Source: Blastocatellia bacterium
Lineage (GTDB): Bacteria > Acidobacteriota > Blastocatellia > UBA7656
Reading direction: 5' to 3'
DNA length: 64,000 bases
Assembly: GCA_045807725.1 (NCBI GenBank)
Contig: JBJMGV010000126.1
Span: forward strand, 28,802 to 92,801
This document shows positions 53,363 through 63,990 of this stretch, piece after piece. Each line of letters begins with the position of its first letter. The first letter of the stretch is position 1. Under the pieces are notes generated by a model that was given only the letters and a program-made list of their open reading frames with translations, was not told the DNA's origin and searched no databases. Both the position numbers and the translations under genes were made by a program.

Positions 53363-55750
53363 ATGACCGCATCGGCTAGTCCTGCTCCACTGGCAGAGCC
53401 GCGCACGTCTCGGCGACCGCGCCGTCTCTGGCTCAAGGCGTTGTTGACGCTCATCGTTCTACTCGTCATCGGCTTTATCGCGCTCGGCGCGTGGCCTGCG
53501 CCCAAAGACTTCGCTGGCGAAGAAGGACTCACCGGCGTCAACCCTAATGGCGGCGGCCTGCGTCGTCCGTTCCCGGCAATGGTTCTACGCGACGATAACG
53601 ACACCAACAACGCGAAGTTCAAAGAGCGCGCAGAGCTTGGCCGCTTGCTCTTCTTCGATCCGATTCTTTCAGGTGATAACACGATCTCGTGCGCGACCTG
53701 CCATCATCCCGACCTCGGCTTCGGCGATGCGCGCGGGCTGGCGATGGGCAAAGGCGGTCACGGGCTTGGCGTGGAGCGCGCGGGCGGCGCGGACGTGAAG
53801 CGCGGCGCGCCGACAATCTGGAATTCGACTTACAATCACTTGCAATTCTGGGATGGCCGCGCCCGCGACCTCGAAGAACAGGCTGAAGGGCCGATCAAGA
53901 GCGATGTCGAGATGAACGAAAAGCCCGACACGCTGGTCAGCGAGCTAAAGAACATTCCTGACTACACGCAGAAGTTCGACTCGGCCTTCGGCGGCGCGAG
54001 CGGATCGGGCATCACATTTGAAAACGTCACCAAAGCCGTCGCCGCCTTCGAGCGCACGCTGACAGCTAACAACGCGCCGTTTGATCGTTATGCCGCAGGC
54101 GACCGCTCGGCAATAACGGCGGCGCAAGTGCGCGGCTTCGACCTCTTTCGTTCGGGCCGCACGCGTTGCTTCGAGTGTCACGGCATCCCGACGTTTGCCA
54201 ACCGCGACTTCAAGATCGTCGGCGTGCCTGATCTTGATGCGAGTAATCCAGACTACGGTCGCTTCGACGTGACGAAAGGCGAAGGCAACAAGTACGCCTT
54301 CAAAGTGCCGACGCTGCGCAATGTCGTCTTGAATGCGCCGTATATGCACAACGGCGCATTCAAGACGCTCGAAGAAGTGCTCGACTTCTACGCGGCGGGC
54401 GGCGGGCCGGGCGCTGGCTTCAAAGCCGCGAAGGTGGACGACAAGATTCACACCTACTCGATCACGGCGGAAGAGAAGCAAGACCTGATCGCCTTCCTTT
54501 ACGCGCTGGTGGATGAATCGAACCTGCCGCAGTTCCCTGAGCGCGTGCCATCGGGCCTATCGGTCGTGCCGCGCCTTCATAATCCCGCGCGCGATCTGGT
54601 AGCGAAATACAACACCGGCTCTCCGAAAGAAGAGATGGCCAGCCGCGCGCCGCAAACCATCACCGTCAAGTCGGGCGAATCGATTCAAGCGGCGGTCAAC
54701 CGCGCGCGACCGGGCGACACCATCGAAGTGAGGCCCGGCCTCTACCACGAAGAGATCAAGATTGACCTCGACAACATCACGCTCAGGGGAGTGGTTGACG
54801 CAGGGGCAGCATTCAGTAACGCCACCTTGGGTCGCAATAATCCCCCGTCCGCCTGGAAGCCCGATCAGCCTGTGCTCGATGGCGAAAAGAAGTTATCCGA
54901 TGGGGTGCTCACAACTGGCAGCAACTTTACTATCGAAAATTTCACGGTACGGAACTACATCGCCAATGGCGTGGTCGCGCAACACGCCCGCAACGTGACG
55001 TTCCGCAATTTGGAGATTGATACGACGGGACTCTACGGCGTCTACCCTGTCAGTTGCACCGGCGTCGAGATTGATCGTTGCGTGGCGACAGGCATTGCCG
55101 ACGCGGCGCTCTACGTCGGCCAGTCGCGCGACATACGCGTTCACGACAGCGAAGCCTTCGCCAACGTCACCGGCATCGAGATTGAAAACTCGATCAACGC
55201 CATTGTCGAGAACAACTACGTACATGACAACGCGGGCGGCGTACTGGTCTTCGTGCTGCCGAACAATGTCTCGAAGGTCGGGCGCGATTGCGTCGTCCGC
55301 AACAACCGCATCATCGAAAACAACCACGCCAACTTCGGCAATCCGAACGCGATTGTCTCAAACGTGCCGCCCGGCTCAGGCATACTGGTGATGGCAGCGG
55401 ACAACACCGAAGTCACCGGCAACGAGATTCGCGGCAACCAGAGTTACGGCGTGCTGGTGTGCGGCCTCGAAATCGCTTTCCCGAAAGGCACATCGTTCGA
55501 TGTCGGGGCGACGCCGGAAAATACGTTCATCCACGACAACACCTATACCGAAAACGGCAAAGCGCCTTCGGACAAATACAAGGAAGGCGGCATACCGGGA
55601 GCCGATCTGGTCTGGGATTTGTCGGGCTGGTCGAACCGTTGGAGCGAAAGACAGGCGACGCGCGCTACGCCCATCCTGAATGCGAACTGGCCGACCTTTG
55701 CGCGCCGCGCCGAGTGGCGACTGCTGAAGTTGATGGAGAAATACCTGTGA
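53363..55750 (+). CDS. Membrane-anchored di-heme cytochrome c peroxidase (CCP/MauG family) fused to right-handed parallel beta-helix (NosD/pectin-lyase-like) domain
   Basis: ...LFFDPILSGDNTISCATCHHP... and ...RCFECHG... heme motifs; C-terminal beta-helix repeats from ...GDTIEVRPGLYHEEI... onward. Confidence 0.8.
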   Translation: MTASASPAPLAEPRTSRRPRRLWLKALLTLIVLLVIGFIALGAWPAPKDFAGEEGLTGVNPNGGGLRRPFPAMVLRDDNDTNNAKFKERAELGRLLFFDPILSGDNTISCATCHHPDLGFGDARGLAMGKGGHGLGVERAGGADVKRGAPTIWNSTYNHLQFWDGRARDLEEQAEGPIKSDVEMNEKPDTLVSELKNIPDYTQKFDSAFGGASGSGITFENVTKAVAAFERTLTANNAPFDRYAAGDRSAITAAQVRGFDLFRSGRTRCFECHGIPTFANRDFKIVGVPDLDASNPDYGRFDVTKGEGNKYAFKVPTLRNVVLNAPYMHNGAFKTLEEVLDFYAAGGGPGAGFKAAKVDDKIHTYSITAEEKQDLIAFLYALVDESNLPQFPERVPSGLSVVPRLHNPARDLVAKYNTGSPKEEMASRAPQTITVKSGESIQAAVNRARPGDTIEVRPGLYHEEIKIDLDNITLRGVVDAGAAFSNATLGRNNPPSAWKPDQPVLDGEKKLSDGVLTTGSNFTIENFTVRNYIANGVVAQHARNVTFRNLEIDTTGLYGVYPVSCTGVEIDRCVATGIADAALYVGQSRDIRVHDSEAFANVTGIEIENSINAIVENNYVHDNAGGVLVFVLPNNVSKVGRDCVVRNNRIIENNHANFGNPNAIVSNVPPGSGILVMAADNTEVTGNEIRGNQSYGVLVCGLEIAFPKGTSFDVGATPENTFIHDNTYTENGKAPSDKYKEGGIPGADLVWDLSGWSNRWSERQATRATPILNANWPTFARRAEWRLLKLMEKYL

Positions 55751-60130: not shown

Positions 60131-60772
60131 ATGCGAACCTTTACCCTTGCCTTGCTAATACTGTTGCTTGCCGGGTCTATCACTAGCGTCGGAGCGCAGC
60201 AGGCCGCGCCCACGGCGGATGATCCGCGTATGACCGCCGACGAACGCGCCAAGGTGGTTAAGTGGATGAACGATACTCAAAAAGAGTATCTCGACCGACT
60301 CGAACACGTCAGCGAGGCGCAATGGAACTGGCGACCCGCGCCATTCCGCTGGACGGTCGGCGAAGTCGCCGAACACATCATGCTCACGGAAGCCCGCCTC
60401 TTCGCCTCTGTCGAAAAGGCGCTCGCCGCGCCGACGAATCCCGACTGGCAGGCTAAGACTAAAGGCAAAGATGTCTTTATCGAGCGGGCGCTGCCGAATC
60501 GGGGCGTACGCGTGCAAGCGCCCATCGAAATTCGCCCGACCGGCAAGCTATCGCGTGAAGAGGTCATCCGCCGCTACAAAGAACTGCGCGCCCGCGCCCT
60601 CGCCTTCGCCGAGAAGACCGACGCGCCGCTGAAGGCGCACACGGTCGAGCATCCGTTCCGTGTCTTCAACACGCTGAACGCCTATGATTGGCTGCTCTAC
60701 ATTCCGCTGCACAATGAGCGGCACAATAAACAGATGGCCGAAGTGATGGCCGCGCCCGGCTATCCGAAATAG
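60131..60772 (+). CDS. DinB/YfiT-like (DinB_2) family protein, secreted
   Basis: Signal peptide; ...WTVGEVAEHI... and ...YIPLHNERHNKQ... four-helix metal-binding family motifs. Confidence 0.75.
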   Translation: MRTFTLALLILLLAGSITSVGAQQAAPTADDPRMTADERAKVVKWMNDTQKEYLDRLEHVSEAQWNWRPAPFRWTVGEVAEHIMLTEARLFASVEKALAAPTNPDWQAKTKGKDVFIERALPNRGVRVQAPIEIRPTGKLSREEVIRRYKELRARALAFAEKTDAPLKAHTVEHPFRVFNTLNAYDWLLYIPLHNERHNKQMAEVMAAPGYPK

Positions 60773-60969
60773 TCGCGGGCCCAGCTTTCTTATCCTTCGC
60801 GGTAAGTTGCGCCACTCGAATAATTTTGAACCCCGGCTCAGGTTTTACCGTAAAATTCTGCACGGATGCTCAGAATTTTCTTGACACCGGCGACGCGCGA
60901 AATTAGCATTGTAGCGCTCGGAATCTCGGCTCAATAGTGGTCGCAGCGCCCTCCGAAGGAGACAACGTG

Positions 60970-62403
60970 ATGAACTTAAGAAGGCTGACCCTCCCCTTTC
61001 TGCTCACGGCATTGGCATCGCTCGGCATTGCCTTCGTGACTTCAACCAGCGCCAGTTCGGGCAAAGAAGTCACCTTCAATAAAGACGTCGCGCCGATCTT
61101 CTATAAGAACTGCGCGGAATGTCACAAGCCCAACGACATCGCGCCAATGTCGCTGATCTCTTACAAAGAAGTCCGCCCGTGGGCGCGCTCGATCAAAGAG
61201 AAAGTCATCACCCGCGAGATGCCGCCATGGAGTCCCGATCCGAAATACGGCCAGTTCAGCAACGACCACCGCCTGAGCGATAAAGACGTTCAGACCATCG
61301 TTGCCTGGGTGGACGGCGGCGCGAAAGAAGGCGACGCGAAAGACCTGCCGCCCGCGCCCGAATTCACCAGCGGCGGCTGGGAACTCGGAAAGCCCGATCA
61401 GATATTCTCGATGAAAGAAGAGTTCATCGTGCAGCCGGGCCAGCCCGACACGATTCAGAACTTCATCATCCCGACCAACTTCAAAGAAGATAAGTGGATT
61501 CAGTCGGCTGAGATTCTGCCGGGCAACAAGAGGATCGTTCATCACGTCATCGCCTTCATCCAGACGCCTGAGATGATTGCGAAGCTGCGCTCTGCCGAGG
61601 GCCAGCGCCGCATCGGCGAGATGACGAAAGTCTTCTACCGCGACGGCACGCTGATTAAAGCTAAGGCCGACGCGCCGATCATTGATAATGGATGCAGCGA
61701 TGCGAGCGGCGGCTCGGCTTTCCCGCGCCCGAAGGCAGCCGAAGGCGGCGATGCCTTTGGCCTCTTGCTCGCGGGTTACGCGCCGGGCAAAGGGCTTGAT
61801 GTGTGGCCGGCGGGCACGGCTAAGAAAGTCGCCGCCGGTTCGATGATTGTCTTCCAGATTCACTACTCGGCGTTTCGCGGCAAGTTCGTGCAGGCGGAAA
61901 AAGACATGACCAGCATCGGCCTGCACTTTACATCGCAGCCGCCGCAGCACTCGCTCAACACCATCGGCATACAGAATCACTACTTCAAGATTCCCGCCGG
62001 TGTGACCGACCACGAAGTGACGGCCTGCTACACCTTCGACAGCGACGTGAAGCTGATGAGCTATATGCCGCACATGCACCTGCGCGGCAAGGATATGAAG
62101 TACGATGTGATCTATCCCGATGGCCGCAAAGAGACGCTGCTGTGGGTTCCGAAGTTCAGCTTCAACTGGCAGACGATGTATTACCTGAAGAAGCCTGTGT
62201 CGATACCCAAAGGCACCAAGATGATCATCACCGCGCACTACGACAACTCGGCGAAGAACAAGTACAACCCCGACGCGACGAAGGACATTCGCTGGGGTGA
62301 TCCGACATATGAAGAGATGATGATCGGCTGGATGGATTATTACGTAGACGCGCCGGCGACGCCCGACAAGGCCGCCGCGTCGGCGCGCACGGCGCGCAAG
62401 TAG
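60970..62403 (+). CDS. Secreted mono-heme cytochrome c (PSCyt-like) fused to a copper type II monooxygenase-like (PHM/DBH-like) domain, paralog 1
   Basis: VAPIFYKNCAECHKPNDIAPMSL heme site; HH(191-192), H in QIHYS, MPHMHLRGKDM, EEMMIGWMD spaced like the CuH/CuM ligands. Confidence 0.65.
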   Translation: MNLRRLTLPFLLTALASLGIAFVTSTSASSGKEVTFNKDVAPIFYKNCAECHKPNDIAPMSLISYKEVRPWARSIKEKVITREMPPWSPDPKYGQFSNDHRLSDKDVQTIVAWVDGGAKEGDAKDLPPAPEFTSGGWELGKPDQIFSMKEEFIVQPGQPDTIQNFIIPTNFKEDKWIQSAEILPGNKRIVHHVIAFIQTPEMIAKLRSAEGQRRIGEMTKVFYRDGTLIKAKADAPIIDNGCSDASGGSAFPRPKAAEGGDAFGLLLAGYAPGKGLDVWPAGTAKKVAAGSMIVFQIHYSAFRGKFVQAEKDMTSIGLHFTSQPPQHSLNTIGIQNHYFKIPAGVTDHEVTACYTFDSDVKLMSYMPHMHLRGKDMKYDVIYPDGRKETLLWVPKFSFNWQTMYYLKKPVSIPKGTKMIITAHYDNSAKNKYNPDATKDIRWGDPTYEEMMIGWMDYYVDAPATPDKAAASARTARK

Positions 62404-62547
62404 CCACCGTAGTCTTTCGTTCGGGGCGGCCCGCAGCGTCGCCCCGAATTCCGTTTCAGTTTTAAGTTCAACAGTGGATTCGCCATTCGGGGCAATGCCG
62501 CAGCGCCGCCCCGCCAAGAGGCCGCCAGTCACCAAGCGGAGGAGTCA

Positions 62548-63990
62548 ATGAAGAAAGCTATCACCATCGTGTTCGCCGCCGCGTTCGTCGCCGCGCTCTG
62601 TTTCGCCTTTTCGCCGGCGACCAGCGCCGCCGGCCCGAGCAAACGCGAAGTCACCTTCTCGAAAGACATCGCGCCGATCTTTTTCAAGAACTGCGCCGAG
62701 TGTCACAAACCCAACGACATTGCGCCGATGTCTCTGCTCACGTTCAAAGAGGCGCGTCCGTGGGCGCGCTCGATCAAAGAAAAGGTCGCCACCCGCGAGA
62801 TGCCGCCCTGGAGTCCTGACCCGCACTACGGCCAGTTCACCAACGAGAAGCGGCTGACGGACAAAGAAGTCGAGACTATCGTTGCCTGGGTCGATGGCGG
62901 CGCGAAGGAAGGCAATCCGAAAGACCTGCCGCCGACGCCTGAGTTCGCCAAAGGCGGCTGGACGATTGGCAAACCCGACGCCGTCTTCGAGATGGGCGAA
63001 GAGTGGACGATTAATCCGAACGCGCCCGACAACTACATCAACTTCTTCATGCCGACGAACTTTAAAGAAGATCGTTGGGTGCAGGCGGCTGAGATACTGC
63101 CCGGCAATCGCAAGGTCGTGCATCACGTCATCGCCTTCATCCAGTCGCCGCAGATGATGGCCAAGCGCGCCGAAGCCGCGAAGAACGGCGGCAAGGTCGG
63201 CGGGCGCACGGCGGACGGCAAGCTGTTTTATCTCGACGGCACGCTGCGCCGCGTCAAGATGGACGCGCCGGTGACGGACGACGCATGCAGCCAGCAGCAG
63301 CCGACCGGCGGGCGTCGCATCGGCGGCGGCGGCGACGAGAACGAAGGCGCGCTGCTTGGCGGTTACGCGCCGGGTCTCGAAGCGGCGGTCTACCCGGCGG
63401 GCGTCGCCAAGCGGCTGCCGGCAGGCTCGACCATCATGTTTCAGGTGCACTATTCGAGCTTCCGTGGCGCGCTCGACAAGCCCGAAAAAGACCGCACGAA
63501 GATCGGCCTGATCTTCGCCAAAGAGCCGCCCGATAAGATGGCCGTGACGTTTGCGGCGGCCAACGTGATGTTCAAGATTCCGGCGGGCTCAGAGAGTCAC
63601 GAAGTCACCGCTTGCCAGACTGTGCCGGCAGACGTTCAAGTGCTCAACTACATGCCGCATATGCATCTGCGCGGCAAGGATATGAAGTACGAAATCATTT
63701 ATCCCGACGGCAAGCGCGAGACAGTGCTGTGGGTTCCGAAGTTCAACTTCAACTGGCAGGCTGCCTACGTGCTGAAGGAGCCATTGAAGGTGCCGAAGGG
63801 GTCGAAGCTGATCGTCACCGCCCACTACGACAACTCGAAGAAGAACAAGTACAACCCCGACCCGGCGAAAGATGTGCGTTGGGGCGATCCGACCTATGAC
63901 GAGATGATGATTGGCTGGCTCGACATCATGGTCGATAACCCGATGAAGAAGCCGAAAGCCGATCCGGCAGCGGGCGGCGGCCAGAAGTAA
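62548..63990 (+). CDS. Cytochrome c / copper-monooxygenase-like fusion protein, paralog 2
   Basis: ~60% identical to paralog 1; the same CAECH, HHVIAF, QVHYS, MPHMHLRGKDM and DEMMIGWLD motifs. Confidence 0.65.
   Translation: MKKAITIVFAAAFVAALCFAFSPATSAAGPSKREVTFSKDIAPIFFKNCAECHKPNDIAPMSLLTFKEARPWARSIKEKVATREMPPWSPDPHYGQFTNEKRLTDKEVETIVAWVDGGAKEGNPKDLPPTPEFAKGGWTIGKPDAVFEMGEEWTINPNAPDNYINFFMPTNFKEDRWVQAAEILPGNRKVVHHVIAFIQSPQMMAKRAEAAKNGGKVGGRTADGKLFYLDGTLRRVKMDAPVTDDACSQQQPTGGRRIGGGGDENEGALLGGYAPGLEAAVYPAGVAKRLPAGSTIMFQVHYSSFRGALDKPEKDRTKIGLIFAKEPPDKMAVTFAAANVMFKIPAGSESHEVTACQTVPADVQVLNYMPHMHLRGKDMKYEIIYPDGKRETVLWVPKFNFNWQAAYVLKEPLKVPKGSKLIVTAHYDNSKKNKYNPDPAKDVRWGDPTYDEMMIGWLDIMVDNPMKKPKADPAAGGGQK

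Follow-up and report, generated by a model that had tools for sequence, protein, structure and literature searches.

Adjacent genes in a Blastocatellia bacterium for exported proteins predicted to fuse a c-type cytochrome to a PHM/DBH-type copper core

The stretch of DNA analysed here, from a soil acidobacterium (Blastocatellia bacterium; 64,000 nt; assembly GCA_045807725.1, contig JBJMGV010000126.1, positions 28,802 to 92,801 of the forward strand; hereafter, the window), ends in two adjacent genes, gene 1 and gene 2, whose products very probably combine a fused cytochrome c with a copper core of the type found in peptidylglycine alpha-hydroxylating monooxygenase (PHM) and dopamine beta-hydroxylase (DBH) (Table 1). 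An initial annotation, made from the letters alone, had described two neighbouring open reading frames (ORFs) on one strand that were about 60% identical, and this was borne out, as both ORFs were recovered in place and their proteins shared 60% identity across 458 aa. For gene 1 the ATG at 60970 is the most likely start, judging from the AAGGAG located 8 nt to its 5' side, and an RBS-like sequence, GGAGGAG (RBS, ribosome-binding site), stands upstream of gene 2. The product of gene 1 was 100% identical to a database protein, P0001, named 'MAG: c-type cytochrome [Blastocatellia bacterium]' (MAG, metagenome-assembled genome). Both proteins began with a hydrophobic, signal-like N-terminus, as read from the sequence. 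The 64-kb window held no further copies of such cytochrome c/PHM-like genes besides these two, and it ended 10 nt past the stop of gene 2. Two antisense ORFs on the minus strand, 61042-62535 (497 aa) and 62545-63450 (301 aa), were rejected as genes and attributed to the high G+C content.

Table 1. Positions of the gene pair, its domains and motifs, and related array genes (window numbering unless a locus is named; L007 and L008 are syntenic loci; pLDDT, predicted local distance difference test)
Feature	Position	Strand	Basis or remark
Gene 1 (clade alpha), exported cytochrome c/PHM-like copper protein, 477 aa	60970..62403	+	ORF, RBS, PF03712
Gene 1 predicted signal peptide, residues ~1-29, MNLRRLTLPFLLTALASLGIAFVTSTSAS	60970..61056	+	Read from sequence; both models have low pLDDT here
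Gene 1 mono-haem cytochrome c domain, residues 31-130	61060..61359	+	
Gene 1 CAECH, residues 48-52	61111-61125	+	
Gene 1 MPPW motif with putative axial Met84	61219-61230	+	
Gene 1 CuH-type domain, residues ~135-322	61372..61935	+	hhalign to rat PHM; invariance
Gene 1 H191-H192	61540-61545	+	
Gene 1 H298	61861-61863	+	
Gene 1 CuM-type domain, residues ~323-462	61936..62355	+	PF03712, DBH and PHM alignments, invariance
Gene 1 H368 and H370	62071-62079	+	
Gene 1 DNSxxNxxNPD loop, family-specific	62242-62274	+	
Gene 1 M450	62317-62319	+	
Gene 2 (clade beta), paralogous cytochrome c/PHM-like copper protein, 480 aa	62548..63990	+	ORF, 60% identity to gene 1, PF03712, PF00034
Gene 2 CAECH, residues 49-53	62692-62706	+	
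Gene 2 MPPW	62800-62811	+	
Gene 2 HH	63121-63126	+	
Gene 2 H301	63448-63450	+	
Gene 2 HxH	63658-63666	+	
Gene 2 M453	63904-63906	+	
Structured intergenic spacer, 144 nt, two GC-rich hairpin units then gene 2 RBS	62404..62547	+	RNA fold
Promoter match of sigma-70 type, TTGACA-17-TAGCAT, 5' of gene 1	60881..60909	+	Consensus scan, 10/12 matches; pattern only
B-type paralog	L007:11054-12976; L008:10947-12893	+	Full ligand set and C-terminal DUF3471
D-type paralog	L007:12979-14259; L008:12896-14161	+	Ends the array in 11 further loci as well

The C-terminal portion of each protein was placed in the PHM/DBH family by profile, by fold and by the register of its metal ligands. The profile check proposed in the initial annotation came out in part: PF03712 (Cu2_monoox_C; gathering cut-off 23) scored above its cut-off in both proteins, with 33.0 bits for gene 1 (residues 357-468) and 27.5 bits for gene 2, while PF01082 and PF07635 gave no match at E<=1 in either. 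NCBIfam offered no family for the window proteins, only trivial haem-motif matches. Sequence searches of the PDB with the single sequence and with a profile of close homologs (alignment A1) returned nothing significant (DBH at E 0.19 and 1.4), the same search with the distant relative P0149 found nothing, and matches to ADP-ribosyl cyclase were discarded as spurious. Two AlphaFold2 models were made; model 1, built on A1, was confident for residues 140-460 only, and model 2, built on a more diverse alignment (A2), had a mean pLDDT of 86.6 and a pTM (predicted template modelling score) of 0.82. In the Foldseek search DBH and PHM accounted for all of the top 30 matches (E 1e-14 to 4e-10), with the next match at 4e-6, and PHM was the best structural match. 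The copper core had the two-domain beta-sandwich (double jelly-roll) arrangement of the PHM/DBH family. An unrelated fold for the C-terminal domain, which the initial annotation had named as a possible refutation, was therefore not what the structure prediction and fold search returned.

The rat PHM core sequence, confirmed against PDB 4e4z, was aligned by hhalign to a family profile composed of members 34-60% identical to gene 1; the alignment spanned 270 columns, with a probability of 95.7% and an E-value of 3.5e-9. In this alignment the CuH ligands H107, H108 and H172 of PHM corresponded to H191, H192 and H298 of gene 1, and the CuM ligands H242, H244 and M314 to H368, H370 and M450; in the second sphere, Q170, Q272 and E313 corresponded to Q296, Q401 and E449. 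A phmmer alignment to DBH gave the same equivalences for DBH H262, H263, H412, H414 and M487 (DBH ligand numbering from PMC4846438). The CuH-type domain was recognised by fold and profile-profile alignment only, and the insert of about 65 aa that follows its HH motif in gene 1 (residues ~199-262) was variable.

A search with the C-terminal domain against 1.84 billion cluster representatives found 9,167 clusters (50% identity) at E<=1e-3, including 1,177 at E<=1e-30, and ligand counts were taken from the best 150 of the 9,167 cluster representatives, pairwise less than 50% identical. In the CuH columns histidine was found at H191 in 141/142, at H192 in 142/142 and at H298 in 151/151; in the CuM columns the ligands were kept at H368 in 152/152, at H370 in 152/152 and at M450 in 146/147. 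W400, Q401, Y404 and the DNSxxNxxNP loop were likewise essentially invariant in the family, and the mean column identity of A2 was only 38%. The initial annotation had likened the spacing of HH, H, HxH and M to the CuH and CuM sites of PHM and DBH, and the six residues did fall in register with rat PHM and proved near-invariant among these homologs. Because PF03712 scored above its cut-off and the fold and profile matches to PHM/DBH were highly significant, these motifs are judged from sequence comparison not to be a chance pattern. Structural reasons alone would not explain the conservation of the ligands, because a paralog that has lost CuM (the D-type, below) has also lost M450.

The N-terminal part of each protein held a single CAECH haem motif, and both proteins had in their sequence the CxxCH and distal Met that define class I c-type cytochromes. 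This agreed with the mono-heme domain of the initial annotation; the attribution to PSCyt was not upheld, as PF07635 (PSCyt1) found no match and the best structural match of the domain was PccH of Geobacter sulfurreducens (PDB 4RLR). By sequence alone the match of PccH to the haem domain was not significant (E 0.09-0.2), and PF00034 (cut-off 21.3) gave 21.9 bits for gene 2 and 19.5 bits for gene 1. The haem domain had a pLDDT of about 90 in the model built on the diverse A2 and below 50 in the model built on the shallow A1. Among the representatives CxxCH was kept in 111-112/112 and M84 of MPPW in 124/125. A haem domain could not be aligned in 41 representatives; as 39 of these were truncated fragments, the fusion of cytochrome c to the copper core appears almost obligate across the family.

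A genome scan with A1, covering one genome per GTDB species and biased by A1 toward the close Blastocatellia subfamily, found that subfamily in MAGs of Acidobacteriota, Blastocatellia among them, and relatives at 33-40% identity in Planctomycetota, Puniceicoccaceae and Bryobacteraceae. All ORFs of 86 loci were clustered, and 84 loci contained 252 family members, with as many as 6 copies per 17 kb; a neighbour family 'F4' that recurred across loci was an artefact, consisting of an antisense ORF within the array genes. Several MAGs titled 'uncultured Clostridia' or 'Heliomicrobium' (L024, L025, L028, L040, L052, L067 and L068) carried Blastocatellia-like arrays at 47-63% identity, and these labels are probably wrong.

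A neighbour-joining tree separated alpha, beta, gamma, B, C and D as six clades, with gene 1 in alpha and gene 2 in beta, and each of these two clades included orthologs from several Blastocatellia genomes. The initial annotation had taken the pair for the product of a recent duplication; because genes 1 and 2 cluster with separate ortholog sets, the duplication predates the divergence of these genomes. Nor are the genes a simple tandem pair, as had been supposed. By synteny, the window cuts through an array of 4-6 paralogs that is old and conserved in Blastocatellia, and genes 1 and 2 are its first members. Two loci, L007 and L008, contained gene 1 orthologs of 85% and 90% identity, respectively, and were syntenic with the window, sharing upstream a CCP_MauG fusion, an aquaporin, prephenate dehydratase, DAHP synthase and a secreted DinB_2 protein. 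Their arrays continued after alpha and beta with a B-type paralog (641-649 aa), whose DUF3471 domain scored 39.8 bits against a cut-off of 29.3, and then with a D-type paralog (422-427 aa). By this synteny, a B-type copy is expected just past the end of the window. The D-type kept CxxCH and M84, lost both CuM histidines and the methionine, and had a CuH triad of His-Cys-His, the middle position (H192) being most often Cys and alternatively Ser, Arg or Trp; this type could be a pseudo-enzyme or else a partner in electron transfer, either with thiolate-ligated copper or with haem only. C-type paralogs (about 410 aa) kept all ligands and lacked the post-HH insert, which was also absent from the D-type. 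Substrate or role probably varies among the paralogs of an array.

The spacer between genes 1 and 2 folded as RNA with -60.2 kcal/mol (z -3.7), and 0/200 shuffled sequences folded as well. Its two hairpin units, 62420-62448 and 62489-62515, were direct, GC-rich copies of the form GGGGCG...CGCCCC. The 3' part of the spacer was conserved in L007 and L008, and the corresponding spacers of these loci also held hairpins, different in sequence from those of the window. Sigma-70-like matches such as the one upstream of gene 1 were no commoner here than in shuffled sequence.

Longer representatives in the scan mostly added an N-terminal AhpC/TSA domain, and this was the commonest architecture in the wider family. 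One conserved Cys lay in the G(T/S)xCP motif of the added domain, which also had a distal conserved GC, and CxxC occurred in only 4/57; in the three-domain relatives (P0123, P0133-P0136 and others) the domain looks, from these motifs, like peroxiredoxin or GPx and not like TlpA. P0123 contained the whole three-domain unit twice, and other relatives added ankyrin repeats, an alpha/beta hydrolase, EF-hands or CBM48. The AhpC/TSA domain accounts for the name 'thiol-disulfide isomerase' given to some close homologs (P0061, P0067 and P0088); the name does not apply to the window proteins, which have no thioredoxin-fold domain, the Pfam scan finding no AhpC-TSA, Redoxin or Thioredoxin domain in either. 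A 529-aa AhpC-TSA protein in L004 was not homologous to the window proteins.

Upstream of the pair, at 53363-55750 (+), the window encoded a 795-aa protein with a di-haem CCP_MauG domain (E 1e-54) fused to a right-handed beta-helix/NosD-like domain, in synteny that was kept in L007 and L008. The gene directly upstream of the array, at 60131-60772 (+), encoded a member of the DinB_2 superfamily whose N-terminus was signal-like, an arrangement kept only in L007 and L008. On the minus strand downstream of the array, convergent to its end, these two loci encoded a DUF5122 beta-propeller protein (E 3e-65; another example being L055:4646-6262); the PAL half of PAM is also a propeller, but DUF5122 is an unrelated repeat family. 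In 17-18 loci (L001:4530-7173, L009, L013 and about 15 others) a Tat-signal amidohydrolase_2 and Tat-signal PA-domain proteins of about 460 aa were encoded directly upstream of the array, and in other loci S15, M48 or S9 peptidases or sulfatases were encoded nearby. None of these amidohydrolase_2, PA-domain, peptidase and sulfatase neighbours occurred in the window's own lineage.

The favoured interpretation of these findings is a copper monooxygenase that works in the periplasm, activates O2 and is reduced by the haem c it carries; we consider this mechanism reasonably likely as a whole. A predicted Sec-type leader is followed by the PccH-like mono-haem cytochrome c domain, whose haem is presumably bound at CAECH; its axial ligands would be His52 and probably Met84, the latter in the invariant MPPW motif. 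A short linker leads into the PHM/DBH-type core of two beta-sandwich domains. Copper would occupy a CuH-type site in domain 1 (H191, H192, H298) and a CuM-type site in domain 2 (H368, H370, M450). The haem would draw electrons from the periplasmic or respiratory pool and feed them to CuH in place of the ascorbate of the animal enzymes, the near-obligate domain fusion being the main, indirect argument for this step. Electrons would then pass from CuH to CuM, and CuM would bind O2 and hydroxylate a C-H bond of the substrate.

Several observations weigh against this interpretation. PF01082, the model of the N-terminal CuH domain that found no match in the window proteins, was reached only below threshold by the distant relatives P0149 (20.5 bits) and P0133 (17.0 bits; cut-off 30). 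The neighbourhoods gave no consistent partner or substrate clue, a literature search found no biochemical data for any family member, and about half of the wider family carried a one-Cys AhpC/TSA-like domain, which could point to peroxide or thiol chemistry. The residues that anchor the substrate in PHM, R240, N316 and Y318, corresponded to M366, I452 and W454 of gene 1, in columns that vary within the family, that of M366 being hydrophobic. In PHM, R240 forms a salt bridge to the substrate carboxylate (PMC12164859). Because the equivalents of these residues are not conserved, the family would lack PHM's mode of holding peptidylglycine, and a C-terminal glycine bound in the manner of PHM is probably not the substrate. 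The family shares the predicted cofactor architecture of PHM and would resemble it in chemistry but, judged by its anchor residues, is not a peptidylglycine hydroxylase.

The main competing explanation was prompted by the AhpC/TSA fusions, and we consider it unlikely. It retains the same haem-copper architecture, with electrons passing from haem c to copper in every variant, as an oxidoreductase and not a C-H hydroxylase: an H2O2-making cytochrome c:O2 oxidase, a peroxidase or peroxygenase consuming H2O2, or an enzyme that reduces small anions, for example nitrite. The single-Cys, Prx/GPx-like domain at the N-terminus of about half of the sampled relatives speaks for such a role; the window proteins themselves, however, have no such domain, and organic substrates are suggested by the CBM48, DUF3471 and alpha/beta hydrolase domains that other relatives carry as accessories. 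The lack of a PHM-type substrate anchor and of a conserved partner enzyme or substrate-related neighbour would also fit an oxidoreductase, as would the di-haem cytochrome c peroxidase fusion encoded 5 kb upstream in conserved synteny, and PHM crystals with copper-bound nitrite exist, according to PDB titles. Against an oxidoreductase stands the strictly conserved HxH...M motif: combined with the counterparts of Q170 and Q272, it marks the site at which PHM and DBH activate O2 and hydroxylate their substrates.

Less probable again, and in our view quite unlikely, is that the proteins are true bacterial peptidylglycine alpha-hydroxylating enzymes that act on the C-terminal glycine of periplasmic peptides, either for amidation or to release glyoxylate as nutrition. 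PHM is indeed the best structural match, but the residues with which it anchors peptidylglycine are replaced. The amidohydrolase_2 and PA-domain neighbours in 17-18 related loci, and the S15, M48 and S9 peptidases elsewhere, would suit a peptide substrate, but these hydrolase genes are missing from the window's lineage, and the Pfam-annotated neighbourhoods contained no gene for a PAL-type (NHL) lyase. The B-type paralog also carries DUF3471, a domain usually attached to beta-lactamase-type peptidases. Very improbable is a non-catalytic role, as c-type cytochromes with a jelly-roll binding module or in copper binding or trafficking with a PHM likeness that is structural only, even though the PHM-fold clan includes non-copper proteins such as PNGase F, D-type paralogs have lost the CuM ligands, and the PGAP name is merely 'c-type cytochrome'.

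Full-text literature searches found no study of the bacterial cytochrome c/PHM-like family, and papers on NHLRC2 and minviopeptin that came up as leads were unrelated. Databases already flag the domain; at JGI, for instance, one homolog is called 'copper type II ascorbate-dependent monooxygenase-like protein'. In comparative surveys (PMC7435645, PMC8812541) the copper enzymes PHM and DBH are treated as eukaryotic. A bacterial family of 9,167 clusters, with the full ligand set and cytochrome c almost always fused, contradicts this eukaryotic-only view. If the haem of the monooxygenase is the physiological reductant, PHM-type enzymes that are independent of ascorbate would exist, and they would represent a new class of periplasmic oxygenase in abundant soil phyla (Acidobacteriota and Planctomycetota), with possible roles in the turnover of organic matter. 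The covalent haem would then also provide a built-in spectroscopic and kinetic handle on the path of electrons to CuH and across to CuM, a route long debated for PHM and DBH. The conserved array, with one copy that lacks a copper site, offers a natural experiment in enzyme diversification. A broader proposal, which we hold to be possible but doubtful, is that the family forms a large bacterial class of haem-copper monooxygenases in which PHM-type O2 activation is wired to the periplasmic electron pool through the fused PccH-like cytochrome; that the arrays of 4-6 paralogs, including the CuM-less His-Cys-His copy, act as a joint oxidative toolkit for recalcitrant soil organic matter, similar to lytic polysaccharide monooxygenases (LPMOs) and their haem partners; and that the family could be the bacterial source of eukaryotic PHM and DBH.

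PHM and DBH are animal enzymes that make amidated peptide hormones and noradrenaline, respectively. Compared with PHM, the catalytic core of PAM (PDB 1SDW, 1PHM, 4E4Z), the window proteins are only 17-18% identical in sequence, escape PF01082, and add the N-terminal cytochrome c and the insert of about 65 aa after HH. They are also bacterial and periplasmic, without a PAL partner and presumably independent of ascorbate. DBH (PDB 4ZEL), whose relatives include tyramine beta-monooxygenase and MOXD1, has an N-terminal DOMON domain and a C-terminal dimerisation domain; in the window proteins, the N-terminal domain is instead a c-type cytochrome with a predicted covalent haem, and a dimerisation domain is lacking. 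The closest relatives in domain make-up, the proteins that join AhpC/TSA, cytochrome c and the PHM-like core, contain the same module with identical ligand sets, and differ from the window proteins in having a thioredoxin-fold domain.

Haem that supplies single electrons to mononuclear copper is familiar from cytochrome c-fused copper nitrite reductases and from cellobiose dehydrogenase, whose cytochrome domain reduces LPMOs. The logic proposed here is alike, but the copper folds of those pairs are unrelated (cupredoxin in the reductases, immunoglobulin-like in LPMOs), so the analogy is one of mechanism only. On the haem side, PccH is a periplasmic electron carrier (PMC13591261). It is a free-standing protein of 129 aa that takes part in electron uptake from electrodes, whereas the PccH-like domain of the window proteins is fused to a copper core.

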